This document shows, piece by piece, positions 2,979 through 47,779 of a stretch of DNA of 55,908 nt; position 1 is the stretch's first letter; each line of letters begins with the position of its first letter. The stretch comes from a virus. Lineage: Duplodnaviria > Heunggongvirae > Uroviricota > Caudoviricetes. A model generated the notes under the pieces. That model was not told the DNA's origin. It was given only the letters and a program-made list of their open reading frames with translations, and did not search any database. A program made the translations under genes and the position numbers. Location: positions 268,837 through 324,744 of IMG/VR virus record IMGVR_UViG_3300037424_001372, one strand, 5' to 3'.

Positions 2979-4184
2979 TTATTTAATATCTATAATCCTA
3001 TTTTCAATAATTTTTAACAATTCTGACATTGAACGTTCTTCATCATTTTCAGCATTTTGTGCTTTTTGAATGGGTTTTTCATTTTGTTTAATTGATTCAA
3101 CTAATTTTTCAAGTTCCTCAATTTCATATTCATGATAATCACATTCGAAATATTTTTGTTCAATAACATTAATTTTACCATTTTCATAAGTTGAAATTGC
3201 AAATGGAAAATATTCACATACTCTCATTTTGCTATGGTCATAGTCAGGAACTGCAACAACATTCATTGGATTAACTAAACATGTTAAAATAACAGAATCT
3301 TTATTTGCAAAATTCTCCACATATTTAGTGCTTCCACAATGCAAACCATTTGAACAATCTTTCCTAAAATCGGCATCACATTCTTTTCTGGCTTGTTTAA
3401 CCGGTTTACCAAGTTCAATTGTCATTTTGCGTGTGTGCATATCTGTATAAACAGGTGCTTTTGGTTGTTCTTCTTTGTCCTTAACAGCACCTGAATTGTA
3501 TATAGCATTGAAAAGTTCTGCAAGATTACCAATAATTTCAATATTTTTTTTACTTTCATTCCAACCTTCAATAGTTTTAACTTTGGTAAGGGAAAATTCG
3601 TTATTTTCATTCTTATAAACAACATATTTTTTAGGACTTTCCTTCCAATTTTTCTTTACATGATGATAACGATTATTTATGAATTCTGGGAAAGTGGTAT
3701 CTACCTTTTCTTCTTTAGCTTCATTTTTATAAACTGCTTTATAAACAATCATATAACCTTTATCTGTTAATACAAAGTCATGTACTTTAATGAAATCGAA
3801 CAGAACTGCACGAATACGTTTGTCAGGATTCAACATTAAAAGTTTCCAAAAATTCATGATTGGATGCAATGGATATTCATTTTCATGATATTCCTTAATA
3901 ATTTCAACGAGTGGGGTTGGAATTGGGGTGTTAAAACCTGCCAAAAACACATCACCTGTTTCGGGGTCATGTTCAAGGCCCGCAAGTATTGCAACACGAG
4001 TTTTTTCATTCAAACATGAACGAACTTTTTTAATATTTTCATCGGTAGGATTTTCTTTGGCCTTTAAAGTCAATCTAAATAGTCCATTGGCTTCGATAAC
4101 ACTTGAACAATTTTTTTGTAATAGTTTTCCGTTTAATGAAATCTTTACACAATTACCGATTTTTATTACATTAATACTTTTCAT
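2979..4184 (-). CDS. rIIB: rIIB-like protein
   Basis: NFWKLLMLNPD, LTDKGYMIVYKAV, CSNGLHCGS, VNPMNVVAVPDY..KMRVCEY motifs; near rIIA. Confidence 0.85.
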   Translation of the reverse strand: MKSINVIKIGNCVKISLNGKLLQKNCSSVIEANGLFRLTLKAKENPTDENIKKVRSCLNEKTRVAILAGLEHDPETGDVFLAGFNTPIPTPLVEIIKEYHENEYPLHPIMNFWKLLMLNPDKRIRAVLFDFIKVHDFVLTDKGYMIVYKAVYKNEAKEEKVDTTFPEFINNRYHHVKKNWKESPKKYVVYKNENNEFSLTKVKTIEGWNESKKNIEIIGNLAELFNAIYNSGAVKDKEEQPKAPVYTDMHTRKMTIELGKPVKQARKECDADFRKDCSNGLHCGSTKYVENFANKDSVILTCLVNPMNVVAVPDYDHSKMRVCEYFPFAISTYENGKINVIEQKYFECDYHEYEIEELEKLVESIKQNEKPIQKAQNAENDEERSMSELLKIIENRIIDIK

Positions 4185-4644: not shown

Positions 4645-4709
4645 TTAATAAGTGTTGAATAGTTCGGGAGGTTTTCGCTTTCTATCCTGTACCAATCTTA
4701 TGCAAACCG

Positions 4710-4976
4710 TTATAAAACATTTAAAAGTTCCTTCGTTCTTGGAAGCCAATTGAAATCATCATCACTCACAGTATATTTTGCAAGTGCATCAATTAGTTCT
4801 ACTTTTAATTCATCTTGATTTGGTGCTATGTTCCTATTATCGTCTTTAGGGTAATTGCAAAATATACTACCTTTAGTCTTTGAAAATAGCCTATCGTCAA
4901 TACAATAACTACCTTTGTTTGTGGTGATTTCAATTGTGCCACCATCTAAATAACTGTCAATTTTTATAATTTTCAT
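4710..4976 (-). CDS. hypothetical protein (cassette gene)
   Basis: Stop codon lies in the GTTA core; unit bounded by GTTATAAAAC(4709) / GTTTTATAAC(4993). Confidence 0.75.
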   Translation of the reverse strand: MKIIKIDSYLDGGTIEITTNKGSYCIDDRLFSKTKGSIFCNYPKDDNRNIAPNQDELKVELIDALAKYTVSDDDFNWLPRTKELLNVL

Positions 4977-4986
4977 AATAAACGTT

Positions 4987-5105
4987 TTATAACAACAAAT
5001 ATATGCAATTATTTCATTACTTACAAATAAATGTTGTTAGTTAATATTAAGGTTGTTCTTAATATAAAGTTCTGTTATAACTGCTTATATTTGCAAACGT
5101 TAGGC
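4987..5105 (+). repeat. attC-like recombination site
   Basis: TATAAC-aa-CAAATATATGCAATTAT ... ATAACTGCTTATATTTG-caaac-GTTAGGC imperfect hairpin. Confidence 0.8.
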
Positions 5106-5287
5106 AACATTTAAGCCACTCACACAGCATCTTCAGGCACATGTTTTTGCGTAATTGTAGGGCAGTAGCCCGCATTTAGTTTCGTGTAATTAGACAGGGT
5201 TGTTTTCCGCAACCCTTACTGAATGATACGCTCAACGTTATTTTCAAGCGTAGGACTGCTCCATTGAAACGTCCTACGCTTTGATAA

Positions 5288-7000: not shown

Positions 7001-9301
7001 TTACAATTTCATTGTTGCTTGTAGAATTGTTATTAGTTCATTCTCCATTTCATTAACATTCCGAGGAACAATAAAATGTTTAAGTATTTTATTGTTGTTA
7101 TTTTGAAGAATTAAAATCTCATTAACAATATCTAACATTAATCTTTCTTCTTTTGTTGGAGTTAAATTGAGTTTAAAATACTTTTCAAGTAAATATTTAT
7201 TACTGATTAATATATCATTTTTCTTATTTGTTTTTAGAAAATCTTTCACAGCATCAACTTTACTTCCCCATTTTTTAGAAATTTGATTGATAAGTCCATT
7301 ACAATAAAAATGATTAAGTTGATTGTAAATTTTGAAAATTTCTAAATATTGTATGTTATTATTAACATAATCATTTTTTCTTTGCAACATAGTTACAAAA
7401 AAATCATTAATATGCCTAGCTTTCTTACAATATTTCATGTACTTAATGTTGGCAGTAGAAAGTTGAATGAACATAATACTGTTTTTTGCATTTGAAGGCG
7501 TTTTCAAAACTCCATTATAATTACAATTATTAACAATAGGGTTTTTATTAAACAAAATTTCATACAATTTAACTGCATCAATCAATTTATAATTATCTTC
7601 AGTAGTACCATAAAAAATTGGCATATTATAATCAAACAATGTTTTTAACTTAACTCTGTCTCTTGACATATCTGACATAAACTTAACAGGAATTGTCGAT
7701 TTCATTAATTCATGAGTAATTTCACTACCACGTTTACGTTGAGCAAGAAACCATTCAGGAACAACAAAGTCGTCATAATTCATACAGTTATTACGAACAA
7801 TTTCAAAATATTCGTCCTGTAAATCATGCAAAGATTGAATAAAAGGATTTTTATTTCCATGTTCATCCACAAAATAATCAACATGAACATTGAACATATC
7901 GCAAATATTATTCAACATTAAGCTACTAATTAAATTTTTACTTATAATATAATAAGTAGTGTGTTGTTCTTTTAAATAGCTGTTTTTAAGAATATTACGT
8001 TGAAAATCAATTTCAACGTAATATAAATTTTTATTTGTTTTAAGCGTTTTATAACCTCCATTAAATTTATAACGTTCCCTTCTTGAAGTAACTGGTTTCA
8101 TTCCCATTGTCTGTGCATTAAACAACAGTTTAAATAATTGTTTGTCATCTGGCATCTTCATGAAATTGTATTTGAATTTAGCGAAGTCAACATTTTTTAG
8201 TTTAAATACATTTTCAACGTTCATTGATGCACCATTCGGAAAATAAAGTTTACCAAAACCAGTCGTTGCTTGAAAATATTGTTCCAATGTAACAATATCA
8301 CAATATTGTTTGTTAATTAAGTCAATTATTTCGGCTTTAACAACTTCTAATTTATTTTTCAACATTTTAATTGTTGATTCGCTATAGTCAATACTTTCCC
8401 TCGACACTGTGACATCCACATCACCTATTTCAAGTTTAATTGCAATTGGCAAATGATAATCACTAGAATTTAAACCCAATGTTCTATAATCAATCGGGTA
8501 TGCCACTCGGCCAAGACAGACATGAATATAATCATTACAATCATTACCTCTGAAAAGGAATGACTTTCCCCTAATAATTTGATAATCATTTGGCAATGGA
8601 TTAACAATTTCTTCCGAATAACGTTTTTTATATTCAAATCCATCAAAAATAATATTTTCAAAGTAATATAGTTGTCGTATCATTTCTTTTTGAAATGAAT
8701 CCAAATCTTTTTCAAGAACGGGAATACGAACTTCCGTACCATTTTTATCAGTAGTTGGTTCTTGATGCATTAAATTAATGCAAGGACATTTTTTACTTTC
8801 ATGAACCAAATAAACATATTTTATTCCATTAGATTTGGTAATTATTTCATAAGAATTATCATATTCACCTTCACCAAATCCTGTGGAACGTTTGTAAGCT
8901 AAAGGGACCTTACTTCCCAATCCAAATCCACCAATCTGCTCATTATCAACACGTTTGGTCGATGCAAAATACACTGAAAAAATTGTATCAATTCTTTCAG
9001 GTGACATACCTACACCAAAGTCAATAAATGAAATATAATGAACATTGGTTGCTTCGTCTTTATGTTTGCGAATTACAACAGGAGCATTTTCCCAATTAGG
9101 TATATTCTTTTTAGCTTCAACATGACTATCAAAACAATTTGATGTTATTTCACGAACGACACTACCAATTGGATTACTATAAATGTTTTTAGAAAACATT
9201 TGGAATATTATTACAGTAGAATCTTTAGATAAAGTCAATTCTTTTTGAGTAGTTGTTGAAATTACCTCTTGTTCAGAATATTGACCTAAATCGATTTTCA
9301 T
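7001..9301 (-). CDS. rIIA: rIIA-like protein (GHKL/Hsp90-like ATPase N-terminus)
   Basis: YSNPIGSVVREITSNCFDSH, DFGVGMS, STKR..NEQIGGFGLGSK GHKL motifs; 766 aa. Confidence 0.9.
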   Translation of the reverse strand: MKIDLGQYSEQEVISTTTQKELTLSKDSTVIIFQMFSKNIYSNPIGSVVREITSNCFDSHVEAKKNIPNWENAPVVIRKHKDEATNVHYISFIDFGVGMSPERIDTIFSVYFASTKRVDNEQIGGFGLGSKVPLAYKRSTGFGEGEYDNSYEIITKSNGIKYVYLVHESKKCPCINLMHQEPTTDKNGTEVRIPVLEKDLDSFQKEMIRQLYYFENIIFDGFEYKKRYSEEIVNPLPNDYQIIRGKSFLFRGNDCNDYIHVCLGRVAYPIDYRTLGLNSSDYHLPIAIKLEIGDVDVTVSRESIDYSESTIKMLKNKLEVVKAEIIDLINKQYCDIVTLEQYFQATTGFGKLYFPNGASMNVENVFKLKNVDFAKFKYNFMKMPDDKQLFKLLFNAQTMGMKPVTSRRERYKFNGGYKTLKTNKNLYYVEIDFQRNILKNSYLKEQHTTYYIISKNLISSLMLNNICDMFNVHVDYFVDEHGNKNPFIQSLHDLQDEYFEIVRNNCMNYDDFVVPEWFLAQRKRGSEITHELMKSTIPVKFMSDMSRDRVKLKTLFDYNMPIFYGTTEDNYKLIDAVKLYEILFNKNPIVNNCNYNGVLKTPSNAKNSIMFIQLSTANIKYMKYCKKARHINDFFVTMLQRKNDYVNNNIQYLEIFKIYNQLNHFYCNGLINQISKKWGSKVDAVKDFLKTNKKNDILISNKYLLEKYFKLNLTPTKEERLMLDIVNEILILQNNNNKILKHFIVPRNVNEMENELITILQATMKL

Positions 9302-13044: not shown

Positions 13045-13095
13045 AATTTTATAGTTTATTTGTTATTAATCCCTTAATGGTCTTATACTCGACCG

Positions 13096-13392
13096 TTATG
13101 CCTCATTCAAAGGCAACCAAATATCGTCATCTACATAGCATTTAGCCCAACCAGCAAGTTCATTGTATTTTTTAACATATTGCTCTGCGGTTGCCCTATT
13201 TACACAAACAACATCATCGTGTTCATTATCGCGCCATCTAACGATCCCATAAGAACGAGTCATATTAAATAAATCCAATAGCTGGTCTTGTGCTTCACTT
13301 ACAGCTATTCGTCCTCTATTAAGGTTCATTAGTATTTCATGCATTTGTTCTTCCATATCGCCACTGTGTTTATTATTTACGTTAGCAAACAT
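13096..13392 (-). CDS. hypothetical protein (cassette-like gene)
   Basis: Stop codon in CCGTTATGCC; true start may be downstream (MEEQMHE). Confidence 0.65.
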   Translation of the reverse strand: MFANVNNKHSGDMEEQMHEILMNLNRGRIAVSEAQDQLLDLFNMTRSYGIVRWRDNEHDDVVCVNRATAEQYVKKYNELAGWAKCYVDDDIWLPLNEA

Positions 13393-13625: not shown

Positions 13626-13638
13626 AATAATTAACGTT

Positions 13639-13729
13639 TGCTAACTGGGTATATAAGCTATACCCTGTTAAGATTCATACTAATTTGATAATTCAGTGCT
13701 AGGTACGGCTCATATACCCACCGTTATAC
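13639..13729 (+). repeat. attC-like recombination site
   Basis: GCTAAC-t-GGGTATATAAGCTATACCCT ... AGGTACGGCTCATATACCC-acc-GTTATAC. Confidence 0.8.
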
Positions 13730-13736
13730 ACAATGT

Positions 13737-13943: not shown

Positions 13944-13983
13944 ACTTTTAATGTTTTTAAAAAATTTTTACACAAAACACTGT

Positions 13984-14102
13984 GTATAACAACAAATATA
14001 AAACATTTTATTCGTTTTTCAAAATAAAGTTTATACTAATTGTTAAATTATTTTTTTATTTAAGTTTCGTGTAAAAACGTTTCATATTTGCAACCGTTAT
14101 AT
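13984..14102 (+). repeat. attC-like recombination site
   Basis: GTATAAC-aa-CAAATATAAAAC ... GTTTCATATTTG-caacc-GTTATAT. Confidence 0.8.
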
Positions 14103-14108
14103 GCAACC

Positions 14109-14570
14109 TTAAAGAACATCCTGCAAGTATTGTCCAGAATCTAAAACAATATGCTTGCAATATTTTTGTTCTTTAAGTTCATTAATCCATATATGCCAAT
14201 GCTTCATAAATGTACCTATAATGTCATAATGACTATCTCGCTCAATATATCTATCCAAATACTCATTTCTACATTCGTTTTTGGGATAAACAAGAGTTAT
14301 TTCAAATCCTTCATCATGTAACAATTTCATACCATCTGGTTCGGTTGCAATAAAAATATAATCTACTTTACCGAATTGCGTTTTCACATCTTCAATATAT
14401 TCTTTGAACAAACCCTTTTCTTTATACTTCCAATATTCTACTTCAACAGCTTTAATGTCAGTGTTGTTGCAAATATATGTCTTACCAGCACCACAAAAGG
14501 CAGCACATAACAACGTGTTATACGTTATAGCCGTTTCAGTGGTAATTTGTAAGTTCGGTTCTTCGTTCAT
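14109..14570 (-). CDS. P-loop NTPase/kinase-like protein (cassette gene)
   Basis: Walker A-like AFCGAGKT; N-terminus encoded within the attC. Confidence 0.65.
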   Translation of the reverse strand: MNEEPNLQITTETAITYNTLLCAAFCGAGKTYICNNTDIKAVEVEYWKYKEKGLFKEYIEDVKTQFGKVDYIFIATEPDGMKLLHDEGFEITLVYPKNECRNEYLDRYIERDSHYDIIGTFMKHWHIWINELKEQKYCKHIVLDSGQYLQDVL

Positions 14571-14636
14571 ATTTTTGTATTTAATGATAAATTTGTTCTC
14601 GTAATCGGCTATAACGCATACACGCAGCCGTTATCG
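14505..14636 (+). repeat. attC-like recombination site
   Basis: ACATAAC-aa-CGTGTTATACGTTATAGCCG ... CGGCTATAACGCATACACG-cagcc-GTTATCG; one extra unpaired T in the left arm. Confidence 0.85.
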
Positions 14637-14642
14637 TCAACC

Positions 14643-14972
14643 TTAACCGACACTATCCAAATCCTTTCCTTTGACCGCTTTATAAATTTCAATAATATCT
14701 TTTTGCTCTTTTATCCAGCGAAAGGCAACTGCGTAATACTTTCCATAACTCATTTCACCACAACCAACAAGGAAATCATTTTCGTTCCATTCAGTTACTG
14801 GAGTGTTGAAAAACAGTATTACTCCCTCCTTTACAAAGTAATTCATTTTAAAATTTTCAAACGGACTTTGACTTTCCTCTACCAATTTGAAGCCCTTACT
14901 AAGAAGAAATGCTGCCGATAACACGCCATATACTCCATTGGCGGGTTCGTGGGTATCCTTAGTTTCTGTCAT
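14643..14972 (-). CDS. hypothetical protein (cassette gene)
   Basis: Unit GTTATCGTCA(14630)...TGCCGATAAC(14922). Confidence 0.7.
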   Translation of the reverse strand: MTETKDTHEPANGVYGVLSAAFLLSKGFKLVEESQSPFENFKMNYFVKEGVILFFNTPVTEWNENDFLVGCGEMSYGKYYAVAFRWIKEQKDIIEIYKAVKGKDLDSVG

Positions 14973-15025
14973 TTTATTAAGTGTTTATTTGTTAGTGTTC
15001 CAAAACCACCACCTATTTTTTATAA

Positions 15026-15472
15026 TCAAAGAGATTTACGCATCCAAATAGCATTTGGTTCAGTTTTATGTTTGACCCAATCTTGATAACCACGTCTCTT
15101 ATACCATTCGTGCATCCAAGTACCGTTTTCAACCCACAAACATGATTTTGTAAACTTCATTTGGCGGCCAATTTCTTCTCTCAGTTCTTGCAATAAAGTT
15201 CCTAATCCGTTATTTCGCGCAGATTCTTTCACACTTAGCCAATCTAAGTAAATAGTTTCCGAATCATCTTTGTAGTAATAAACGCGACCAAATGCCAGCC
15301 CCGTTTCTTCCATTATCAAAAATGAATCTTGATTTGACTCTTTTTTAATATGAGTAATAAAACGGTGGTTAACACTATGTAGCCCCAATTTGGTGACAGT
15401 GATCGTTCCTTGGTTCGTAATTTCTTGTTTCATTTTCGCATAATGTATAAAATATAGGCGTAGCTTTTGCAA
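15026..15472 (-). CDS. GNAT-family N-acetyltransferase
   Basis: YLDWLSVKESARNNGLGTLL (motif A) and WYKRRGY; true start may be MKQEIT. Confidence 0.85.
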   Translation of the reverse strand: MQKLRLYFIHYAKMKQEITNQGTITVTKLGLHSVNHRFITHIKKESNQDSFLIMEETGLAFGRVYYYKDDSETIYLDWLSVKESARNNGLGTLLQELREEIGRQMKFTKSCLWVENGTWMHEWYKRRGYQDWVKHKTEPNAIWMRKSL

Positions 15473-15545
15473 GCACAGTTTTCACATTACCAACGTTATG
15501 GGTAAGCATATCGACACTCGACACGCCTACCCATTTGACAAAATT

Positions 15546-15788
15546 TTATAACTTTGAAAATAATTCGTTTTGTAATTCCTCTTTTGTTGCAAAAACTTTA
15601 TCTTCATCAATTGCTGAATAGCTTCCAGTCGAATAAACAACAGCTACGTTATTTTCTAACCCAGTACGTTTAAAAGATGAGTCCGAGAATTCGCCAATTA
15701 CAAAAGCAATTCCTTTAATTATGCCTTTTGTTGGCTCACTGTAATTCATGTAAAAAATTTCGTCCCCGATTTTAAATTTCGATTTCAT
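15546..15788 (-). CDS. hypothetical protein
   Basis: MKSKFKIGDEIF...VFATKEEL, SH3-like small phage protein pattern. Confidence 0.7.
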   Translation of the reverse strand: MKSKFKIGDEIFYMNYSEPTKGIIKGIAFVIGEFSDSSFKRTGLENNVAVVYSTGSYSAIDEDKVFATKEELQNELFSKL

Positions 15789-15830
15789 AATTTTGATTTT
15801 AAATTGTTAATATATTAGTAAATGTTATAA

Positions 15831-16055
15831 CTATATAATGCACTCATCGAGAGTAATTTCAAAAAGAACCATTGCATACTCCTTGTTTTTAAATGCAGAA
15901 CTAAAGCATCCTACATGGAATCTTATATCTAAGTCCGGGGAGTATAAAATGCAATGAATTGGAGGCAAGCTGCATGACTGACCTCTTGTTTTACAATTCA
16001 CAGGCTCCCAAATTATATTTTTGCGAATAATATTTTTCGTAGCATCTAACTCCAT
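15831..16055 (-). CDS. hypothetical protein
   Basis: Co-directional ORF. Confidence 0.55.
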   Translation of the reverse strand: MELDATKNIIRKNIIWEPVNCKTRGQSCSLPPIHCILYSPDLDIRFHVGCFSSAFKNKEYAMVLFEITLDECII

Positions 16056-16273
16056 TTTGTAAATATTGGTTTATTCAACACATCCAATTGGTCGACTGTA
16101 ACATATCCACCACATTTATTACATATTATGCTTAAATCTTCTGGTGGTATTTTATTTGTGTCGGTTGACCATTTGTTTCCACAAGAGCAATAACTACGCC
16201 TAACAAGAGCAAGCATATTCAATTGCGATTTCGTTTCAGTGGTGTCAATGTTGTTTGTTATATCTATTTTCAT
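16046..16273 (-). CDS. Zn-ribbon hypothetical protein
   Basis: CSCG...CNKCGG; N-terminus overlaps an attC arm (GCCTAAC at 16198). Confidence 0.6.
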   Translation of the reverse strand: MKIDITNNIDTTETKSQLNMLALVRRSYCSCGNKWSTDTNKIPPEDLSIICNKCGGYVTVDQLDVLNKPIFTKWS

Positions 16274-16331
16274 TCATGTAAATTAATGAGTTTGTAATTT
16301 CTATTCCGATAATGGCTTATACACAACCTCG

Positions 16332-16580
16332 TTAATTACATGGCTCGGCTAACCAACCTTTTGAAGCCGACCAAACGACCCAACTACCATAAGCCACGTG
16401 CATACCGCCAAAACATTTAGCAACCTGAACCGACCACGTGAAATTTTCACCAGTCAATATAGTTCCTGTTCCAAAATGCCTAAATCTATTACCTAAATGT
16501 TTTTTTGCTCGTTCAAGAACAAAAGCCTTGCAACCAACACGTGTTATAGTTAATTGTGGTAGCATCTTTAATTTGTTCAT
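16332..16580 (-). CDS. hypothetical protein
   Basis: Likely start MNKLKM; stop codon in a GTTA core. Confidence 0.6.
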   Translation of the reverse strand: MNKLKMLPQLTITRVGCKAFVLERAKKHLGNRFRHFGTGTILTGENFTWSVQVAKCFGGMHVAYGSWVVWSASKGWLAEPCN

Positions 16581-16593
16581 TTTTAGCGGTAAT

Positions 16594-16956
16594 TTAAAAA
16601 AACAACCTCGAAAGGTAACCATCGATCAATTCTTCACCAACGACACTAACCATATTCTCCGATTTTAATTTTAAAACTAAGTTTTTGAGTTCTTGGTGTT
16701 CTTCTTCAAATTGACATTTCATAAATTCAGCATTATCACAACGATGTGACCACAAATCAGGCATTAAATTGAGAAGGTCACAAAACTTCTGACAATCATC
16801 TTCATCTACTTCATCACCACATGTTTGAAGTATATCATTATTGCTAATAAACTGAACATTTGAATCATAATCACCAGTATCTGCAAGGGCATGCGTTTCC
16901 ACCTTAAAAGACCATTTATTTATTGACATATTGTTGAAAATTAGTTTGTTAAACAA
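16594..16956 (-). CDS. hypothetical protein
   Basis: Intact ORF; likely start MSINKW. Confidence 0.65.
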   Translation of the reverse strand: MFNKLIFNNMSINKWSFKVETHALADTGDYDSNVQFISNNDILQTCGDEVDEDDCQKFCDLLNLMPDLWSHRCDNAEFMKCQFEEEHQELKNLVLKLKSENMVSVVGEELIDGYLSRLFF

Positions 16957-16971
16957 ATAAAATACCTACAG

Positions 16972-17190
16972 CTAACATTTGTAGATAGGTTCGATTTCTC
17001 TACTAGTTAATGACATCCAATGATTATGTCCAAGTTTCCATTTTAATAATATTTTAAATTTAACACTCAATAAATAACTTGTGATGACAAAGTGTGGCAC
17101 CCAATAAGGGTTTCGTTTTTTAGCCAATAAACATGTTGAATTTACCTTTATATTCATCCAATCTGTTCTCTTATTACGGAAGTTTTCCAA
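16972..17190 (-). CDS. hypothetical protein
   Basis: Co-directional ORF. Confidence 0.5.
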   Translation of the reverse strand: MENFRNKRTDWMNIKVNSTCLLAKKRNPYWVPHFVITSYLLSVKFKILLKWKLGHNHWMSLTSREIEPIYKC

Positions 17191-17587
17191 TCACAGTTAT
17201 TTGATTAGGATAAAACGCAACAACATTTTCATCCAATATCACACCATCATATCCTTCTTCAATTAATCGATTTTTTAATTTTAAATCAATATAATTATAT
17301 GAATAATCATATCCATTATCATCTTTAATTGTGTCACCATCAGTGTTTCTAAATTTACCATCATCAGTATCTGATAAATCATATGGGTTTTTTAATTTAA
17401 AATTAATTTTAAATACATTCACTCCATATGTGTTTGCAAAACCATAATCCTTTGTACCATAAAAAACAGTATCTTCGTCAAATAGAATTTCATCATTATT
17501 TGTGCCGTGTAAATAAAAATCGTTTACCACTCTATTTTCATTAAGATATTCTCTTATGGTTGTCGCAATAATTTTTCTTAATTCCAT
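17174..17587 (-). CDS. ADP-ribosyltransferase-like (ART-PolyVal-like) protein
   Basis: YLHGT, FYGT...FANTYG, LKNPYDL and EGYDGVI...VVAFYPNQI motifs. Confidence 0.6.
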   Translation of the reverse strand: MELRKIIATTIREYLNENRVVNDFYLHGTNNDEILFDEDTVFYGTKDYGFANTYGVNVFKINFKLKNPYDLSDTDDGKFRNTDGDTIKDDNGYDYSYNYIDLKLKNRLIEEGYDGVILDENVVAFYPNQITVIGKLP

Positions 17588-17654
17588 TTGCGTTATATTT
17601 ATATATAAATATTCATAAATTAAAATTTATATCAATTATAGGTATCAACATCAC

Positions 17655-17909
17655 TCATAATACTCCCCATGATGCACCACAAGGAGTTGTACCATAACCA
17701 CATTCTCTTAATTGTGTTGCTATCCATTCAGCAAGTTCATCATTACTCATTTTTTGTAACATATCGTTTGATTTAATAATCAAACCAATCTCAAACATAA
17801 TATCGATTAATTTCTGTTCAGATTGTTTTTTAGACAGAATTAAACTATCAACTTTTTTCTCAATTGATTGTGATAATTCTAATATTTTTTCTACTTCTAA
17901 TGGACTCAT
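17655..17909 (-). CDS. hypothetical protein
   Basis: Intact ORF ending GYGTTPCGASWGVL. Confidence 0.75.
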   Translation of the reverse strand: MSPLEVEKILELSQSIEKKVDSLILSKKQSEQKLIDIMFEIGLIIKSNDMLQKMSNDELAEWIATQLRECGYGTTPCGASWGVL

Positions 17910-18257
17910 AATATTAAATTTTAATTAAATAATTCACTGTTAATTGATAATCTTAAATCATATTCTAATTCTTTCATTAGTTCAAATTGTAATAAGGAAA
18001 TTGAATAGAATAATGTTTTTTCCAATTTTTCATATAAAACATCGTCATAATTATTCAATACTTTAAATGGTAATATATCACCACTATCAGGTAAAAGCAT
18101 AAATTTAATTTTAATTAAAACCTAATCATTCCACTTGCTAAATATGTTGTGATTTTCTTTTGTTTTTATTTGTTCACAAATAATATTAATTTTCATTAAA
18201 TAATTCATCTTCTGGCAACAGTTTTATATTGCAGTTCGTTATGCTACTTTGCAACAA

Positions 18258-18446
18258 TTAGCACCAATATTGCACAATTATGTAATGTTGTGGTTCTCGG
18301 TACGTTTCTTTAACACGATATGCCGAATCAGGTGTTTCATAATCCTTGTCAACTATTTGGTAGCATGGCTCTGTTATCATCGAATTATTATCTTTCATTT
18401 CAGCAAGAATATTTACTATTCTTACAATCATATATCTTTCTTTCAT
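18258..18446 (-). CDS. hypothetical protein
   Basis: Co-directional ORF. Confidence 0.6.
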   Translation of the reverse strand: MKERYMIVRIVNILAEMKDNNSMITEPCYQIVDKDYETPDSAYRVKETYREPQHYIIVQYWC

Positions 18447-18573
18447 TTTGTAATTTATTAATGATAAAAAATACGAGTGTTAACAAACACAATCACATAA
18501 ATTGCTCAAATATTCATCAACTATTTTTACTGCATATTCGTACTTATGTTTTTCAGATAGAAATTTATGTTTG

Positions 18574-18858
18574 CTAATAACTGGCATAAATAACGCATGA
18601 ATTATCAGTTTTCGGAGCAATTCGAATTGATTTATCGTTACTCATATGCTGAATCTTCAAACTATCTTTATCAGAACGAATCATAAATCCACTCATTTTG
18701 ATAGTTGAGAAGTTATTATCATTATCTTCAGTCCAAAGAAGTTCACCATTTTCAGAATCAATGAGTTCGTAATGACTGAACTCTCCATTGTCCGTAAACT
18801 TTTCAATTATTAAAGGTTTCATATATTTATCGATTTTATTAATGTTAATTACATTCAC
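18574..18858 (-). CDS. hypothetical protein
   Basis: Co-directional ORF. Confidence 0.6.
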   Translation of the reverse strand: MNVININKIDKYMKPLIIEKFTDNGEFSHYELIDSENGELLWTEDNDNNFSTIKMSGFMIRSDKDSLKIQHMSNDKSIRIAPKTDNSCVIYASY

Positions 18859-18864
18859 AACAGT

Positions 18865-19548
18865 TTATGCACCATAAAAAGATGGCACATAACCACCTTG
18901 ATAGCATCCGACAATCGGGACCATATTATCTCCTTTAATATCAACTCCATCAATAGATGAAATCGATTTATACCAAGTTTTTTCAAATTGTTTGTCGATT
19001 TTTGACAATTCAACCAATAAATGAAATCCTCCGCGGGTTTGTAAAAAATGTAAACAATCCTCATTAATATGTTCAATTGCTTTATTTCTTACAACTTCCA
19101 ACTCCACACCATCAAAATCAATATCAAAAAACACTTTTCTACTGCAAGCCTTTTGTATTTCTGATAACATTTCTTGGTGTGGGTTATAACCACCATAAGG
19201 TTTCGTAATTAACTCAGCAAGTTTAATTAAGCCATTCTTTGCAGCTTTTTCATAACTTCTTGGGTTTGGGTTAATATAAATTGCAAGTGCTTCTTGTGGT
19301 ATTGGGTTATGTTTTTGATGATAATTCCCAACTTCGCACTCTAATTGTTGTATTTTTTCAAACAAAAACTCTTTAGTTGATGTGAATCGTTTTAATTGTT
19401 GTTTATCTGAACTAATATGAACAATATCTTTACAATATTTTGACCGTGCAAAGAGACAACAATAATATGCCTCGCCATTTTGCAATTCAGGGAGCCAATC
19501 AATAAATTTCAGCAACTTTTCTTTATCTTTTATAATTTGATAATTCAT
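18865..19548 (-). CDS. AEP/primase-polymerase-like protein
   Basis: FDIDFD (motif I) and [10 protein letters not shown] (motif II). Confidence 0.55.
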
Positions 19549-19733
19549 TATATTGTTTTTAAAATATTTTCATACTCATTAAACCTATGTTCTCTAATTG
19601 GTCTTGTTTTAGGTTCGGTTTCAAAATACAATAACAAACATGGTGAAATGTTTTTATATTTCTCCACATATTCAAAACGAATTAATTCACGATTCTTAAT
19701 ACGTTCTTTGATTTTATTGTGATATGGATACAT
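19548..19733 (-). CDS. hypothetical protein
   Basis: Coupled ORF (1-nt overlap). Confidence 0.7.
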
Positions 19734-19743
19734 TGATTTTTAA

Positions 19744-20166
19744 TTATAATCTAGTCTCTAAAAGTTTTTTGGTTGACTCAAATAAATCAACCATTTTCAA
19801 ATATTGCTCTTTGGTGATTTTATTCGTTTTGGTGTGAGAATCGATGGTAAACCACAAATCATTTAACTTACGATTTTTATCAATTGTAATCATGATTTTA
19901 TCATCATTACCAATATAAGTATTAATACTAAGACCTATAATTGAATTAAGATAAATTGAAGTAATTTCAACATAAGAAATTGATGTGTCATTGAAATTGA
20001 TTTTATAATACTTGTGGTCAAGAATTTCTTTAAGAAGTTTCTGATGACTATCTTCTTTTAATTTATCATTAGCCAATTTCTTAGCATGTAAATCAGATTC
20101 AATAGCAATGACATCATCAATGGATTTACCACGATATTTTTCTAAATATTTATGAATTTCGTTCAT
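19744..20166 (-). CDS. hypothetical protein
   Basis: Intact ORF downstream of the promoter motif at 20299-20324. Confidence 0.7.
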   Translation of the reverse strand: MNEIHKYLEKYRGKSIDDVIAIESDLHAKKLANDKLKEDSHQKLLKEILDHKYYKINFNDTSISYVEITSIYLNSIIGLSINTYIGNDDKIMITIDKNRKLNDLWFTIDSHTKTNKITKEQYLKMVDLFESTKKLLETRL

Positions 20167-20298
20167 AATTGTGAATTTAATTATAATTAATAATAAAATT
20201 GTAGCTGGTGTTCTTCTTTATCAATAATATGACTTCTCAATTTTTAGTGAGTAATTTACAACATTAACTACCAATCTTTTCATTGGTTTTTATTTTTA

Positions 20299-20324
20299 TA
20301 CGAAAATAAATTTAAATTGTTACA
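20299..20324 (-). promoter_or_regulatory. phage promoter motif
   Basis: TACGAA-N14-GTTACA; the only copy I found between 12.35 and 28.1 kb. Confidence 0.8.
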
Positions 20325-20473
20325 AAACAACATTATCAATAAACATATGACCAACTAGAATTTATAATTATTCAATTTTTCAAATTTCCCTAAACTAAAT
20401 TCGTCATTATTTTTCACAATCAATTAGTTAATTGACATTGTTGATATATAATAGATAGTTAGCAAACATAAAA

Positions 20474-20650
20474 TTATTCACGCTTACCTCGTATTTCAAT
20501 ATCCGCACCAATTAACTGTTCAGGGCATTCCGTATGGTAGCCTTGTAATCTTGCCCAAAAATCTCGTTTAATCATATTAAGTTCTTCATCAGTTAATTGA
20601 TGCTTTACTTTCACACTAATTTCGTATTTGTATTCAAAAATTTCATCCAT
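20474..20650 (-). CDS. hypothetical protein (cassette gene)
   Basis: Unit GTTAGCAAA(20458)...TTTGCTAAC(20669); likely start MDEIFEY. Confidence 0.65.
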   Translation of the reverse strand: MDEIFEYKYEISVKVKHQLTDEELNMIKRDFWARLQGYHTECPEQLIGADIEIRGKRE

Positions 20651-20662
20651 AATTTTACGATT

Positions 20663-20755
20663 TGCTAACAAGCAATATATGTTATTGCCTATTAAGGTTT
20701 ATACTAATTTTTAAGTTTCGTGCTTGGCAACTACATATATTGCCATCCGTTATGT
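20663..20755 (+). repeat. attC-like recombination site
   Basis: TGCTAAC-aa-GCAATATATGTTATTGCC ... GGCAACTACATATATTGC-catcc-GTTATGT; close paralogue of 48114-48206. Confidence 0.85.
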
Positions 20756-20767
20756 GTAAGGCTAAAA

Positions 20768-21109
20768 TTACAACTCTGAAACATAATCTTTCCACTCATC
20801 TTCAGTTCTACCTGTACCATATTTCAAAATCATATCTCTCTGTGTTTTTTCATCCAAACACGATTGATTTACTAAAATTGTATAATAATTCAATTTAGCT
20901 TTTTGTATTTGCCCAGAAATTGATTTTCGGTAATTTTCATTTCTTTCACATTGCCACAAATCTTTGTTCTACATATACCATTTTTCAATACCCATTAACA
21001 CTTCTTGTCTAAGACTTTCTGTGTTCATTTTATATTGGTATTTTGAATTTAGATGATCATCTAAACCATCCACCTTAACTGTCAATTCTTTTGGTTTTTC
21101 TATCCCCAT
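20768..21109 (-). pseudogene. cassette gene interrupted by an in-frame TAG
   Basis: MGIEKPKE...EKWYM*NKDLWQCER, TAG at 20969-20971; unit GTTATGTGT(20749)...ACACATAAC(21150). Confidence 0.6.
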
Positions 21110-21275
21110 AATTTTTAATATTAATGATCAAATAAATAACCACACATAACATGCAATGTATTATTTGTACTAATTTTGAAGCGTTCTGCCTCGCATTAAC
21201 GTTAGTGCGACTCGATAGGCTTGTATCTCGTAATCAGCCACAGCCATATTGCCAACCATTATAAGTAATAAAAAA

Positions 21276-21587
21276 TTAATCAGATATTTTAGTTTCAATA
21301 AATTCTATCTCAATAAGTTTAGAACATGAAGATTTATGAATTGACATATCATCATGAATCATAACAAATCCAGAATTATCAAAACCTAAACATTCGCCAA
21401 ACATATTGGGATAATCTTTATGTTTTCCGATCTTATATAATATTTTATCACCTTTTATTATTTCATTTTCATCAGTAATGTAGAATTTATTATTTTGTTT
21501 AATTAATTTTTTACTACTGATAACATCAAATATATTCAAGTTTTCTTGTGCTTCGTTGAAACTTTTTATGCGTTTTAAATCTTTCAT
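21276..21587 (-). CDS. hypothetical protein
   Basis: MKDLKRIKSFNE N-terminus; LNIFDVISS segment is an attC arm read antisense. Confidence 0.65.
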   Translation of the reverse strand: MKDLKRIKSFNEAQENLNIFDVISSKKLIKQNNKFYITDENEIIKGDKILYKIGKHKDYPNMFGECLGFDNSGFVMIHDDMSIHKSSCSKLIEIEFIETKISD

Positions 21588-21731
21588 CTTTTTATATTAT
21601 TTTTTGAATCTGGAATAGTAACATCATTACCATCACCAATTTTTTCAACATTAATTTTCATAATTTTAATTTTTTTTTATGTAATTATTTTTATCTGTTT
21701 AAACAAGTGTTTTCGTAATTTACGGTACTGG

Positions 21732-21824
21732 TTATAACAACGTGTATAAAACATAACCAATTAAGGTATGTGGTTTATATCAAGCGTTGTGTATAGCTAC
21801 GTTTCATACACACAACCGTTATCG
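21732..21824 (+). repeat. attC-like recombination site
   Basis: TTATAAC-aa-CGTGTATAAAAC ... GTTTCATACACA-caacc-GTTATCG. Confidence 0.8.
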
Positions 21825-21830
21825 GCAACC

Positions 21831-22193
21831 TTAAAACAGCTCCGATATATCATTAAACTGTGATTTATGAATTTCACATTCTTTTGGCATTGGAATATTT
21901 TCATCATCACCTAAATCAAAATGATTTCCTTTAATTTGATTTTTAGGTGTATATAAAAAACATTTCTTTTCTGTGCAGTAAAGTAAATCAACTTTGCGTT
22001 CCCATTCACTACCGTTGTAATAATTACCATATATTTCGGTTTCTTTTTTATCCAAATTTTTACAATGGAAGCACGGTCTATCATTCAATGGATTTTTACT
22101 ACATGCTTTTTCATGGTATTCCATTTTAGACTTGCTTAGTCCGTGTTTTTTACAATGCTCGCAATAAAATACTTCTTTAGTTTTTGATTTCAT
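21831..22193 (-). CDS. Cys-rich Zn-binding hypothetical protein (cassette gene)
   Basis: YCEHCKK...HEKAC...CFHC; unit GTTATCGGC(21818)...GCCGATAAC(22224). Confidence 0.75.
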   Translation of the reverse strand: MKSKTKEVFYCEHCKKHGLSKSKMEYHEKACSKNPLNDRPCFHCKNLDKKETEIYGNYYNGSEWERKVDLLYCTEKKCFLYTPKNQIKGNHFDLGDDENIPMPKECEIHKSQFNDISELF

Positions 22194-22217
22194 GTCTTAA
22201 TAATTAAAAAAGGCAGC

Positions 22218-22310
22218 CGATAACACGTAATATAAAAAATTGGTTATCAAACCGCTGTGGTAAATTTAAAGTGTCTGCAAAGCCAACTTTTTATATTACC
22301 ACCATTATGT
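22218..22310 (+). repeat. attC-like site with mutated core (ATT instead of GTT)
   Basis: CGATAAC-ac-GTAATATAAAAAATTGG ... CCAACTTTTTATATTAC-cacc-ATTATGT. Confidence 0.75.
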
Positions 22311-22545
22311 TCAATAAAATAAAAATTATTCTTTGCGAACAAATTTGTTTAATTCATTTTGTATCCTTGTTAAATCTTCACCAGATATTTCTCCAACACC
22401 ATCATCATCTCTGTTTGTGGTCAACAAATTTGTTATTAAGTGTTGTGCAAATTTTAACATATCAGTATATGTAAACATTTTTTCTTCTTTTGAGTCCATA
22501 ATTTTTTACAATTTTATAACAACAAATAAATGTAATAAAATATCA

Positions 22546-22842
22546 CTATTGAGCATTTGGTGTTCCAAATATAGTTTTAAAATCATTCTTACATCTATTA
22601 ACGTCATCAGTATATCTTTGTTTGCCTTCATATCTCCAAAACTCATACCATTTAATTGGTTTAACTCTTGGTGTTAAAATAATTGGTTCATTTATTGGAC
22701 CCTTATCGCTTTTTCCAACAATTAAATTTATATTAAATATTATTGGAACTTTTATCGTAGAAATATCGGTTTCGGTGACATATATTTTACTTTTAATCTT
22801 TTTTGTTTTGGTAAAGTTAAACCAATTAAAAAACTTTTTCAT
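22546..22842 (-). CDS. hypothetical protein
   Basis: Co-directional ORF. Confidence 0.55.
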   Translation of the reverse strand: MKKFFNWFNFTKTKKIKSKIYVTETDISTIKVPIIFNINLIVGKSDKGPINEPIILTPRVKPIKWYEFWRYEGKQRYTDDVNRCKNDFKTIFGTPNAQ

Positions 22843-22876
22843 ATTAAATTTTCGTTAAGTGTTATTTAATATACAT

Positions 22877-23113
22877 TTAGCGGTAATTCTTTTCAAACTC
22901 CGCTATACTTAGTTCTTTCTTTTTGATATTTATCCACATCTGTAATACTTCTTCAAATTCTTCTAATGTTATATTGGTAGTAGCCATCATTTCAGCCTTC
23001 AACCATTCATAAACATCTAATTTGGAACTACCGCTAACAACAGATAAACTCAATTGCTTTCTGTATTGGTCAACGATAGTTAGTGCTTCTTTATACTGTT
23101 CATCTGTTATCAT
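22877..23113 (-). CDS. hypothetical protein (cassette gene)
   Basis: Start codon in the attC loop; QLSLSVVSGS is encoded by the attC left arm. Confidence 0.7.
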   Translation of the reverse strand: MITDEQYKEALTIVDQYRKQLSLSVVSGSSKLDVYEWLKAEMMATTNITLEEFEEVLQMWINIKKKELSIAEFEKNYR

Positions 23114-23161
23114 AATTTTGTTATTTTAATTCGCGATTGCGTTTATCTGCAAACGTTATCG
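23032..23161 (+). repeat. attC-like recombination site
   Basis: CGCTAAC-aa-CAGATAAACTCAATTGC ... GCGATTGCGTTTATCTG-caaac-GTTATCG. Confidence 0.85.
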
Positions 23162-23167
23162 CTCAGT

Positions 23168-23614: not shown

Positions 23615-23632
23615 TTTTATAAAAACAACTAC

Positions 23633-23686
23633 TTATAACAACAAATATATTGTATTGAAACGACAATATGTTTACAGTCGTTACAT
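23633..23686 (+). repeat. short attC-like site
   Basis: TTATAAC-aa-CAAATATATTGT...ACAATATGTTTA-cagtc-GTTACAT; related degenerate copy at about 23914-23966. Confidence 0.55.
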
Positions 23687-23690
23687 ATAA

Positions 23691-29265: not shown

Positions 29266-29323
29266 TATGTTTTTTATTGGTTATAATTATGATACGAATG
29301 CTAATCTGAATTGTTATAATAGA

Positions 29324-29662
29324 TTAACGACAGTCATTAACCATATCAACCATGTTATCATAACACTCTTCAAACGAATAATCATCAAATTTCCATAAAT
29401 AATTATATGAATTACCGCCACAATCATAATCAATATCCAATCCAATGGAGTTTTCAAAGATATAACAATTAATAGTCCAATTACTATTCGGAATGTTCTT
29501 CACAAAAGCCTTATCGCACCATTTATCAAAATTACCTTCACCATAGCAATAACTATCATTGGTTCCGAATTTAAAACCTTCATTTTTAATGTGTTCTAAT
29601 ACTTCAACAGTGAATATATTAGGAAAATCATTTTTGTATGGATTGTCATTTAAACTTTTCAT
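29324..29662 (-). CDS. hypothetical protein
   Basis: Intact ORF. Confidence 0.7.
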   Translation of the reverse strand: MKSLNDNPYKNDFPNIFTVEVLEHIKNEGFKFGTNDSYCYGEGNFDKWCDKAFVKNIPNSNWTINCYIFENSIGLDIDYDCGGNSYNYLWKFDDYSFEECYDNMVDMVNDCR

Positions 29663-30982: not shown

Positions 30983-31171
30983 ATGAATGCAAATATATGT
31001 GAAGTTTTAAGGGAAAATCTAATAAAACAGTGTTCCACATATTCTACATTTACGGATCATTTCATGGATATGAATGTAAAACAATATTTTAGTTTTACAA
31101 TAACTGATATAAATGATGCATGGGATATGGAAGTATTATTAGCATCCCTATTAGAAAACACCCTTAAATAA
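30983..31171 (+). CDS. small hypothetical protein
   Basis: Member of the plus-strand mini-gene run. Confidence 0.5.
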   Translation: MNANICEVLRENLIKQCSTYSTFTDHFMDMNVKQYFSFTITDINDAWDMEVLLASLLENTLK

Positions 31172-31179
31172 AATTCAAT

Positions 31180-42376: not shown

Positions 42377-42402
42377 TACGAACATTGTTGTTTAATGTTA
42401 CA
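42377..42402 (-). promoter_or_regulatory. phage promoter motif (identical 26-mer at 44397-44422)
   Basis: TACGAACATTGTTGTTTAATGTTACA. Confidence 0.8.
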
Positions 42403-43531
42403 AATATTGTTGATATTCTGATTTATCCAATTCACGAACCACTTTTAATTTATTTGTTCTGACTTTTCCATCACATTCTTTGGGAACAACAATTGAATTA
42501 ATATCTACTTCTACTTCAATAATTGCCAAATCTTTCCAATTTAAACCAAATTTAACTGCGAAAAACAATTCTGACACATGTAATCCAATATCACATGAAT
42601 TATCTAAATTAGAGGAACATTCACCATCAATTATTTCACCAATATGATATTTAAAATCTTTTAGATAATCTGAAAAATATTGTTCATCGCATTCTTTATG
42701 AACTGCTTTATAAAACAATAAAATATTATCGTTTTTCTTGGTTATTTTATAATTTTTTAAATAAAAATCAATTGTTGGGTTAGTGTTAAATGTATCATAT
42801 CGAATAATTTGACTGGTGTCATTTAATATAACATTTGAAATATTTTCAATTTCATTCGAAATGAAAATATAATTATAACCAAAACAATTAATAATACCAT
42901 TTGAACGAAATTTATTTACTTGGGATGAACCCCCCATATAATTTACTTGGGATGAACCCCTCATTTCTTTTACTTGGGATGAACCCCCCATATAATTTAC
43001 TTGGGATGAACCCCCCATATAATTTACTTGGGATGAACCCCACATTTCTTTTACTTGGGATGAATCCCCCATATAATTTACTTGGGATGAACCCCTCATT
43101 TCTTTTACTTGGGATGAACCCCCCATATAATTTACTTGGGATGAACCCCCCATATAATTTACTTGGGATGAACCCCACATTTCTTTTACTTGGGATGAAC
43201 CCCCCATATAATTTACTTGGGATGAACCCCCAATATAATTTACTTGGGATGAACCCCCCATATAATTTACTTGGGATGAACCCCTCATTTCTTTTACTTG
43301 GGATGAATCCCTCATTTCTTTTACTTGGGATGAATCCCTCATTTCTTTTACTTGGGATGAATCCCTCATTATAATAACAGCATTATGAGATAATATTACA
43401 TCAGCATTTACATATAATTTATCTAATAAAATTGGTTCATTCATATCACCACCAATAATAAATATTTCACCAGAATAATCTAATGATATATTATTTAATT
43501 CTTCTTGGGTATTGACAATAATCTTATTCAT
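42398..43531 (-). CDS. 9-aa tandem-repeat (beta-solenoid-like) protein with DUF7666-like C-terminal domain
   Basis: 17 x (G/D)SSQV(KEM|NYM)x repeats; C-terminus FYKAV...YHIGE...C..GLHVS...DGKVRTNKLKVVRE. Confidence 0.75.
   Translation of the reverse strand: MNKIIVNTQEELNNISLDYSGEIFIIGGDMNEPILLDKLYVNADVILSHNAVIIMRDSSQVKEMRDSSQVKEMRDSSQVKEMRGSSQVNYMGGSSQVNYIGGSSQVNYMGGSSQVKEMWGSSQVNYMGGSSQVNYMGGSSQVKEMRGSSQVNYMGDSSQVKEMWGSSQVNYMGGSSQVNYMGGSSQVKEMRGSSQVNYMGGSSQVNKFRSNGIINCFGYNYIFISNEIENISNVILNDTSQIIRYDTFNTNPTIDFYLKNYKITKKNDNILLFYKAVHKECDEQYFSDYLKDFKYHIGEIIDGECSSNLDNSCDIGLHVSELFFAVKFGLNWKDLAIIEVEVDINSIVVPKECDGKVRTNKLKVVRELDKSEYQQYL
42911..43369 (-). repeat. 27-nt coding tandem repeat, 17 units
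   Basis: Invariant TTTACTTGGGATGAA core in every unit. Confidence 0.95.
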
Positions 43532-47414: not shown

Positions 47415-47593
47415 GATAGTGCTTTTAATTGGTTTCTGTGTATAATACGATTCTAATTAAAGTTTGTTACAGGTTTTATTTAAAATTATTTGCATTGGCG
47501 AGTGCTAAAATTGAAGTTTTTGTTTTCATAATAAATTTATTTAAAGTTGATAATTCTGTTCTTTGTAATCGGCAGTTTTCATATTGCCAACCG

Positions 47594-47761
47594 TTATAAC
47601 CGATAAAATTTTAACCACATGAAACAACCAAACGGTAGTGGTACTGTGGTCAATAAATGCCAGAATATAAATCCAAGCGCAAATAAAGCATCATCAGTTT
47701 CATGTGGTTTTACCATCATTTTAATAAATCCGTATATCGGTATAAAGTATGTCCATTTCAT
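47594..47761 (-). CDS. 55-aa membrane peptide (cassette gene, missing from ORF track)
   Basis: MKWTYFIPIYGFIKMM...LKFYRL*; unit GTTATAACC(47593)...GGTTATAAC(47786). Confidence 0.6.
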   Translation of the reverse strand: MKWTYFIPIYGFIKMMVKPHETDDALFALGFIFWHLLTTVPLPFGCFMWLKFYRL

Positions 47762-47779
47762 AATATAAAATTTTACAGG

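Follow-up and report, generated by a model that had tools for sequence, protein, structure and literature searches.

The 55,908-nt stretch analysed here (hereafter the window) is the final 55.9 kb (positions 268,837 to 324,744) of a 324,744-bp virus record, IMGVR_UViG_3300037424_001372, which has a CheckV completeness of 100%. Its GC content is about 29% and almost every gene lies on the minus strand, including all plausible genes between 14096 and 23161. The subject of this analysis is a family of long imperfect hairpins situated between these genes or around their starts, which an earlier note made from the sequence alone had taken for integron attC sites. Because the genome encodes rIIA, rIIB, a Gp23-family major capsid protein (209.6 bits) and a gp21-type prohead protease, the phage carrying these hairpins is, judged by gene content, an uncultured T4-like jumbo phage. 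Megablast of the region against 50,697 deposited phage records gave no match, blastn of the element against the same records detected none, and an Rfam search of the window returned two tRNAs only and no hairpin match (Rfam has no attC family). The two marker genes and the hairpins, the latter with their scores under the covariance model described below (R1), are as follows.

2979-4184: rIIB, a T4-like marker gene.
7001-9301: rIIA, a T4-like marker gene.
4984-5107, minus strand: hairpin outside 14096-23161, R1 37.5 bits, holding TATATTTG at about 4996-5003.
13636-13731, minus strand: short-class, non-coding hairpin, R1 61.8 bits; the upstream stop is 13 nt before TAAC and the downstream ATG 20 nt after R'.
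13981-14104, minus strand: hairpin with an AT-rich long loop, R1 48.5 bits.
14502-14638, minus strand: long-class hairpin of 137 nt, R1 51.8 bits, E 6e-8.
20660-20757, minus strand: short-class hairpin, R1 75.3 bits, repeat family D17.
21729-21826, minus strand: short-class hairpin, R1 77.3 bits.
22215-22312, minus strand: short-class hairpin with the TAAT variant of R'', R1 63.2 bits.
22511-22611, minus strand: weak candidate element, R1 21.4 bits, E 0.012 with filters off.
23029-23163, minus strand: long-class hairpin of 135 nt, R1 30.9 bits, E 0.003.
23630-23688, minus strand: minimal-class hairpin of 59 nt, R1 24.2 bits, E 0.003 with filters off.
47777-47876, minus strand: short-class hairpin, R1 72 bits.
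48111-48208, minus strand: short-class hairpin, R1 74.6 bits.

On the gene strand each hairpin runs from 5'-ATAACG (the R'' end) through a 3-nt bulge, a stem of about 20-26 bp, a loop and the return stem to TGTTAT (the R' end), and sequence conservation extends about 8 bases past GTTA. On the plus strand the same hairpins read TATAAC-AA-[arm]...[arm]-CAACC-GTTAT, so the asymmetry reported by the earlier note (2 nt after AAC, 5 nt before GTT, conserved AAC...GTT ends) is there as described. The elements range from 59 to 141 nt and fall into length classes of about 59, 90, 98 and 135 nt. TAAC and GTTA are invariant or nearly so in sets of 63 and of 114 aligned elements, and a conserved loop box, TAGTATAAAC, is present in elements.

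A pattern scan (TATAACAA-N60-90-CAACCGTTAT) matched more than 115 IMG/VR contigs, and arm pairing among its matches was bimodal, with 9-14 of 14 possible pairs in 67 of 122 and chance-like pairing in the remainder. The RNAalifold consensus of 63 elements has 25 pairs, 16 of which show compensatory changes. Two early hairpin detectors proved unreliable, one being too strict and the other at noise level below 13 of 14 pairs (about 22 shuffle matches), and a covariance model, R1, built in the sense (gene-strand) orientation, was therefore used instead. R1 has 12 matches in the window, all on the minus strand; elsewhere in the genome its matches are restricted to about 224-245 kb (5 at E < 0.01, 7 at E < 1). 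In about 120 fetched IMG/VR loci it finds some 200 more, arranged in one-strand arrays of up to 14 elements per 6.3 kb. Over 114 R1 matches 96.5% of cells are paired, compared with 71% in shuffles and 35-50% when the partners are slid, and 19 of the 25 pairs have changed on both sides. This strong covariation confirms that the hairpins are a real family. An outer third helix was rejected, as its instance-specific pairing equalled that of a re-paired control, and sequence inspection gave neither the tandem G·A pairs of a kink-turn nor the conserved core of a ribozyme.

A search of 596 Gb of cellular genomes for the element yielded 10 matches only, all on short contigs of metagenome-assembled genomes (MAGs); six of the 10 are labelled Bacteroidota, which is a weak hint of the host. 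Comparison of the window with the contigs of one DNA sample, probably the one from which it came, gave matches to paralogous elements only, without usable population variants.

In attC sites the extra-helical bases sit on the R''-L'' arm, which adjoins the 3' end of the cassette open reading frame (ORF), and crossover takes place at R' (PMC2727003). In the phage hairpins it is likewise the longer arm, carrying the 3-nt bulge, that adjoins the stop of the upstream gene, which makes the plus strand bottom-like and gives the minus-strand genes the same orientation as the elements. The earlier note had the genes running antisense to the attC polarity in an inverted architecture, but this reads the asymmetry the wrong way round, since the extra bases adjoin the upstream stop; in the geometric sense the plus strand is the bottom strand and the architecture is the ordinary one. 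Five further elements checked in this genome agree with the local coding strand, and in other phages the longer open frame of the inter-element spacers (median 371 nt, 91% open) is on the modelled sense strand in 101 of 113 cases.

The strand that folds best is nevertheless the opposite of the one that folds in attC. On the sense strand the element folds into a single long helix, which is interrupted by one 3-nt bulge and contains near-invariant G·U pairs. Among 2,820 cells there are 388 G·T wobbles as against 24 A·C, pairing is 83.6% when the antisense strand is scored, and the two most telling G·U columns are not ones set by the search pattern. For the element at 14502-14638 the sense strand has a predicted fold of −32.2 kcal/mol (z −4.08; antisense z −1.2), and a relative, L003, has an equivalent hairpin with covarying arms that are different yet still pair. 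The G·U excess and the better sense-strand pairing point to a helix that would form in RNA or in the sense strand.

Several arms had been said to contain TATATTTG, a Bacteroidota −7 box, on the gene strand, and this box is indeed there, for instance at 4996-5003. The further suggestion that the arm holds a promoter applies at most to a minority: the Bacteroidota-type arrangement TTTG-N19-21-TAnnTTTG occurs in 22 of 141 elements on the sense strand, compared with 12 on the antisense strand and 3 after shuffling, and its −7 box falls in the 3' arm in 9 of those 22. The element at 13981-14104 is an example, with TATATTTG in its 3' arm and TTTG 19 nt upstream. Sigma-70 promoters showed no enrichment (7 of 141 sense, 3 antisense, 5 shuffled). 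A separate gene-strand motif family, TTGTAAC-N15-19-TCGTATWATAAT, lies about 20-30 nt before ATGs in 50000-55908 and at scattered sites (20279-20331, 29271-29326, 53142-53197); it overlaps GGGG/CCCC stem-loops at 52-56 kb (50-56 kb was also given), and together these units look, by their sequence, like classic promoter-early stem-loop (PeSL) cassettes with promoter and stem-loop.

The hairpins are placed closely with respect to stops and starts. In the window, 10 of the 12 R1-supported elements have the upstream stop 10-21 nt ahead of TAAC. In the arrays of other phages it lies within 30 nt before TAAC in 57 of 105 cases, with a peak at −12, coincides with the TAA of TAAC in 16 of 105, and never falls inside the element. 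At 14104-14112, 14638-14646 and 21826-21834 a recurrent TAAGGTTGCnnA immediately precedes TAACGGTTG, and the −12 peak arises because the TAA in TAAGGTTGCnnA is the upstream gene's stop; TAAGGTTGCnnA itself resembles part of the R''-bulge block, repeated upstream of it. Downstream starts depend on length class: none of 55 elements of the ~98-nt class contains the start of the downstream ORF, and 16 of 36 elements of at least 112 nt do, with the ATG in the loop, 41-90 nt before R'. The genes and partial elements that bear on these relations in the window are listed here.

14109-14570, minus strand: P-loop NTPase-like gene (phrog_4182) with its first ~20 codons inside the hairpin.
22877-23113, minus strand: 78-aa ORF starting in the hairpin loop, with its stop at 22877 outside any GTTA.
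16201-16338, minus strand: degenerate hairpin at the start of ORF 16046-16273 (fold z −0.17; no R1 match up to E 10).
21513-21539, minus strand: relic 3' arm and R' in ORF 21276-21587, encoding LNIFDVISS, with the 5' arm lost.
14914-14936, minus strand: relic 3' arm and R' in ORF 14643-14972, encoding GVYGVLSA, without a partner arm.
47568-47600, minus strand: 5' half-element (R'', bulge and 5' arm, without the 3' arm), the TAA of its TAAC being the stop of ORF 47594-47761.
4690-4716: similar 5' half-element, with the TAA of TAAC as the upstream gene's stop.
13075-13102: similar 5' half-element, with the TAA of TAAC as the upstream gene's stop.

Six stop codons had been assigned to the TTA of a GTTA core, and this is true of five, the sixth (22877) lying in ATTTA. 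None of the five belongs to a significant R1 match: three are in the half-elements (4707, 13093, 47591), one is in the degenerate hairpin at 16332, where the R''-like TAACG contains the stop of ORF 16332-16622, and one is an isolated GTTA (6310). The three half-elements are probably footprints of breaks inside elements. Similarly, five genes had been named as starting inside a hairpin. The hairpin is intact for 14109-14570 and 22877-23113, degenerate for 16046-16273, and reduced to a relic for the other two, with no hairpin and no R1 match at the start of either 21276-21587 (fold z −0.1) or 14643-14972 (fold z +1.14). The relic at 21513-21539 aligns locally to the 3' halves of the long-class elements L021_12, L100_0 and L040_6.

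For the long class, the proposal that the hairpin body serves as leader and start site, with the arm translated, agrees with the sequence: the ATG is in the loop, and the 3' arm and R' are in the predicted coding frame. In 14502-14638 the loop holds the ATG (14570) of the P-loop gene, and the 3' arm and R' (G at 14511) read as AITYNTLLC. The phrog_4182 match of the product begins at residue 14, leaderless homologs begin about 18 residues later, and the next in-frame ATG is 181 nt past R'. In 23029-23163 the loop holds the ATG at 23113, from which the frame runs on through the 3' arm and R' (G at 23038) to give ...QLSLSVVSGS; this element has 70% nucleotide identity to L040_6, with similar leaders and unrelated protein bodies. 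Among 28 ORFs starting inside an element, 20 read R' with its G as first codon base, a frame that yields ...(I/L)(S/G)(D/V/A)-V-(I/S/M)-x-(S/R). The translated arm and the one main frame of R' thus explain the recurring N-terminal peptides of VSGS/VISS type to which the earlier note had drawn attention.

One leader, ...DNTDKKLHISD|V, was followed across phages with an exact 23-nt query, which found 21 copies or contigs, including three contigs already in the set and the genome's own copy (L142:5303-5608). All 21 have an in-frame ATG 19-40 codons upstream, with every frame open and the frame of R' identical, and the 20 scorable bodies behind the leader belong to 16 unrelated families. A protein search with the genome's own copy gave two kinds of match, namely body homologs of 72-74 aa that start at an M just past R', and database proteins that share the leader only. 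The same body family occurs in L175 after a short non-coding element, where the ATG comes from R' (GTTATG), in L174 without any element, and elsewhere behind other leaders. Many of the bodies behind the shared leader are small and cysteine-rich, with paired CxxC motifs of zinc-ribbon-like appearance. Since the ratio of nonsynonymous to synonymous polymorphism (pN/pS) of the loop-coded leader codons is 0.82, selection on the leader peptide appears to be slight: the frame is kept open and the peptide itself is, on this sequence measure, barely constrained. In L096 (element 3) and L102 (element 2) the loop-starting ORF encodes a lipoprotein-type signal peptide (MSNRKTNGFFAYVLLAVVLSSC), and the 3' arm and R' code for its hydrophobic core; an arm can therefore encode a functional peptide segment.

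These features raise the possibility that the hairpin is purely a signal at the RNA level, for example for processing by an RNase III-type enzyme or for binding by a phage RNA-binding protein, or a translational device that shows the start codon in a loop, with the mosaic of genes a by-product of ordinary recombination. The sense-strand helix with its near-invariant G·U pairs and conserved 3-nt bulge would suit such a signal, as would a leader frame kept open at this pN/pS, in which translation through the arm would matter and the peptide would not. However, the hairpin matches no Rfam family, and an RNA signal alone leaves both the sharpness of the junctions described next and the uniformity of the element among distant phages unexplained. 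We therefore assign this explanation a low probability.

Comparisons between phages place breaks in homology at the hairpin ends. In the trio L096, L102 and L057, the sequence of L102 agrees with L057 as far as ATAACGTTTTGC and from there on with L096, at 100% identity, so that the crossover lies within ATAACG(T/G)TTTGC, the R''-bulge block. L027 and L085 share the upstream gene and the 59-nt element without a difference and diverge directly after GTTAT (R'). Long-class element pairs are 81-96% identical from R'' to R', the identity ending at GTTAT or GTTAG, with upstream flanks and ORF bodies at background (58-66%). Within the window, 20660-20757 and 48111-48208 are 86% identical between unrelated flanks. 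For ORFs of 87-100% identity, the element on the upstream side is 72-96% identical and the one on the downstream side unrelated. As breaks occur at R'' and at R', both hairpin ends are junctions and the element is tied to neither neighbour. The earlier note had assigned each element to its downstream gene, and it does move with that gene in two clean cases, but in one it stays with the upstream gene and many elements are shared between unrelated flanks; on these alignments, the element appears to behave as a separate linker module.

A tally of flank homology that had favoured travel with the downstream gene was discarded, because it came largely from a second conserved non-coding module downstream of hairpins in other phages, and only few clean breakpoint cases were kept. 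This module, seen in L055, L065, L092, L096, L021 and others, lies 5-150 nt downstream of the hairpins and consists of ...GATACGAAGNAC..., a T-rich stretch and then AATATTTATATATAAA about 10-25 nt before an ATG. AATATTTATATATAAA resembles the T4 late-promoter-like TATAAATA, and the same box occurs inside loops of long-class elements in those phages.

Sharp junctions are also what would be expected of true structure-specific recombination sites, integron-like and acting as folded single-stranded DNA or cruciforms under an unrecognised phage or host enzyme, so that a shared leader would be joined, in a standard frame, to bodies exchanged precisely at the base of the hairpin. The AAC/GTT boxes, the asymmetric unpaired spacer and the variable loop (57-140 nt) fit the attC plan, the junctions fall at R'' and R' to within a few bases, 20 of 28 ORFs read R' in the same frame, and attC clusters lacking an integrase have been reported in virulent phages, some of them recombined by IntI1 (PMC9892861). 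Yet the complete genome contains neither a tyrosine recombinase (PF00589) nor a Y1 transposase (PF01797), its only recombinases of these kinds being three serine recombinases; the junctions are at both ends and not at R' alone; pairing is best on the sense strand, not on the bottom strand as in attC; and cellular genomes lack the element save for the 10 short MAG contigs. We consider such sites unlikely. Three of these points (no tyrosine recombinase, a sense strand that pairs better, and breaks in homology at both ends) likewise indicate that the hairpins are probably not integron attC sites.

Alternatively, the genes might be stationary and the hairpin itself mobile, as a small non-autonomous element resembling a miniature inverted-repeat transposable element (MITE) that inserts at stop/start junctions. 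Copies that are 81-96% identical between unrelated genes of different phages, the discrete length classes, the half-elements and the occurrence of the same gene with and without an element are all compatible with mobility of this kind. However, the 4-nt flanks of the alignment show no target-site duplication, the elements have no associated transposase, their orientation strictly follows that of transcription, the arrays hold one element per gene, and in-frame leader fusion in 21 of 21 copies would be hard to obtain by random insertion. Insertion of a mobile hairpin is therefore quite improbable.

We give slightly better than even credence to a different reading, namely that the hairpins are constant structured intergenic linkers between which gene bodies are exchanged, similar to PeSL cassettes and distinct from attC. 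Each linker would follow closely on the stop codon of a small gene, would precede or surround the start of the gene that comes after, and would be co-oriented with the genes. Its helix would fold on the sense strand, most likely in read-through RNA, where it may act as an attenuator, a processing site or a stabiliser of 3' ends. The conserved ends would be the points at which homology between phages breaks, and it is these breaks that lead us to propose exchange of gene bodies between constant linkers, possibly by homologous or hairpin-promoted recombination as proposed for PeSL cassettes. In the ~135-nt class the loop would supply an A-rich leader, the ATG and 15-25 codons, and the 3' arm and R' would be read in frame into the following body.

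Several points weigh against linkers of this kind. The elements have no enrichment of sigma-70-like promoters, though a promoter is a defining part of PeSLs, and a canonical intrinsic terminator was rejected because a T-rich tract follows the hairpin in only 16%. The count of G·U pairs is somewhat biased by a covariance model built on the sense strand. Clean independent breakpoint cases are few (about five), and metagenome assemblies can mis-join at repeats, although the junctions of leader and body fall within read length. Folding in RNA, attenuation and the choice of start sites are things that we infer. Finally, near-invariant AAC/GTT ends and an asymmetric internal loop across diverged phages look like the marks of recognition by a specific protein and resemble attC more closely than would be expected by chance.

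A bolder extension, which we hold to be unlikely, is that the hairpins are the sites of a gene-shuffling system of T4-like jumbo phages that has not been described before, is guided by structure and needs no integrase, and in which bodies are swapped in a standard frame behind starts and leaders encoded by the element. If true, this would be a prokaryotic-virus analogue of phase-compatible exon shuffling, and the arrays would be libraries of small proteins, many of them rich in cysteine, that stay exchangeable among phages. Most of the unknown genes of large phages sit in variable regions, and the ways in which such genes come and go and stay expressible are poorly understood; the hairpin family offers a well-defined, widespread sequence signature for gene exchange there. 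A single hairpin of non-coding appearance can provide the stop context of one gene and also give the following gene its start codon and N-terminus. In annotation, this means that gene starts in hairpin regions are easily miscalled and that common N-terminal peptides need not mean homology; for integron surveys, it means that attC-like hairpins in phages are not necessarily integron sites.

Two repeat regions of the window stand apart from the hairpins. At least 16 tandem copies of a 27-nt unit, encoding a 9-residue repeat, occupy 42833-43453 inside a 377-aa ORF (42398-43531). A plus-strand island at 30.3-34.2 kb contains tandem gene duplications of about 200 bp (31164-31578 and 31772-31842 are listed) and also a 12-nt tandem repeat, AAACACTATTAA.

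Three known systems invite comparison. With attC sites, and with their integrase-less clusters in phages (CALINs), the hairpins share an imperfect palindrome (57-142 nt in the attC plan, 59-141 nt here) with AAC...GTT boxes at its ends and a variable loop, extra bases on the arm adjoining the upstream ORF, and an arrangement of one element per small gene in a single orientation, with the stop codon sometimes in the TAAC box. They differ in that the spacer, unpaired in attC, pairs here through G·U on the sense strand; that one 3-nt bulge replaces the single extra-helical bases of the attC L box, no single extra-helical G or T being seen; and that the sense strand, by the pairing proxy, makes the better hairpin whereas attC folds as the bottom strand. 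The phage genome has no integron integrase and no attI. An attC cassette comprises an ORF with its own attC and crosses over at R', whereas here breaks occur at R'' too and the upstream ORF has no fixed bond with the element; the loop of the phage hairpin, moreover, can be coding.

The genes of T4 internal proteins carry a shared N-terminal capsid-targeting sequence on otherwise diverse proteins (PMC3012670). In that system the leader is a functional peptide, and the prohead protease cleaves it. The likeness is that diverse small proteins share only a short N-terminal leader and that a gp21-like prohead protease is encoded here as well. In contrast to T4, however, the leaders are unlike the T4 sequence and form several unrelated families, their pN/pS of about 0.8 argues against a constrained peptide, and their coding sequence doubles as a hairpin arm.

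PeSLs and their ORFan cassettes are mobile regulatory cassettes of T4-type phages, with a strong sigma-70-like early promoter within the motif (PMC2839356, PMC4122927). They too occur in T4-like phages, in variable regions rich in small ORFans, as a conserved stem-loop between an upstream stop and a downstream start, with G·T pairs in the stem; the breakpoints of insertions, deletions and replacements among related phages fall in the motif, and a dedicated recombinase is not known. Mini-circles that arise by recombination of neighbouring motifs are a further mark of PeSL cassettes. The present element differs from them in its lack of a recognisable sigma-70-type promoter, in a much longer stem (about 26 bp) with invariant AAC/GTT ends and a 3-nt bulge, in a length of 59-141 nt that is highly uniform across distant phages, and in a long class whose hairpin carries a start codon and a translated leader. 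The PeSL with its ORFan cassette is the closest known kind, and phage CALINs and the T4 internal-protein leader are partial analogues.

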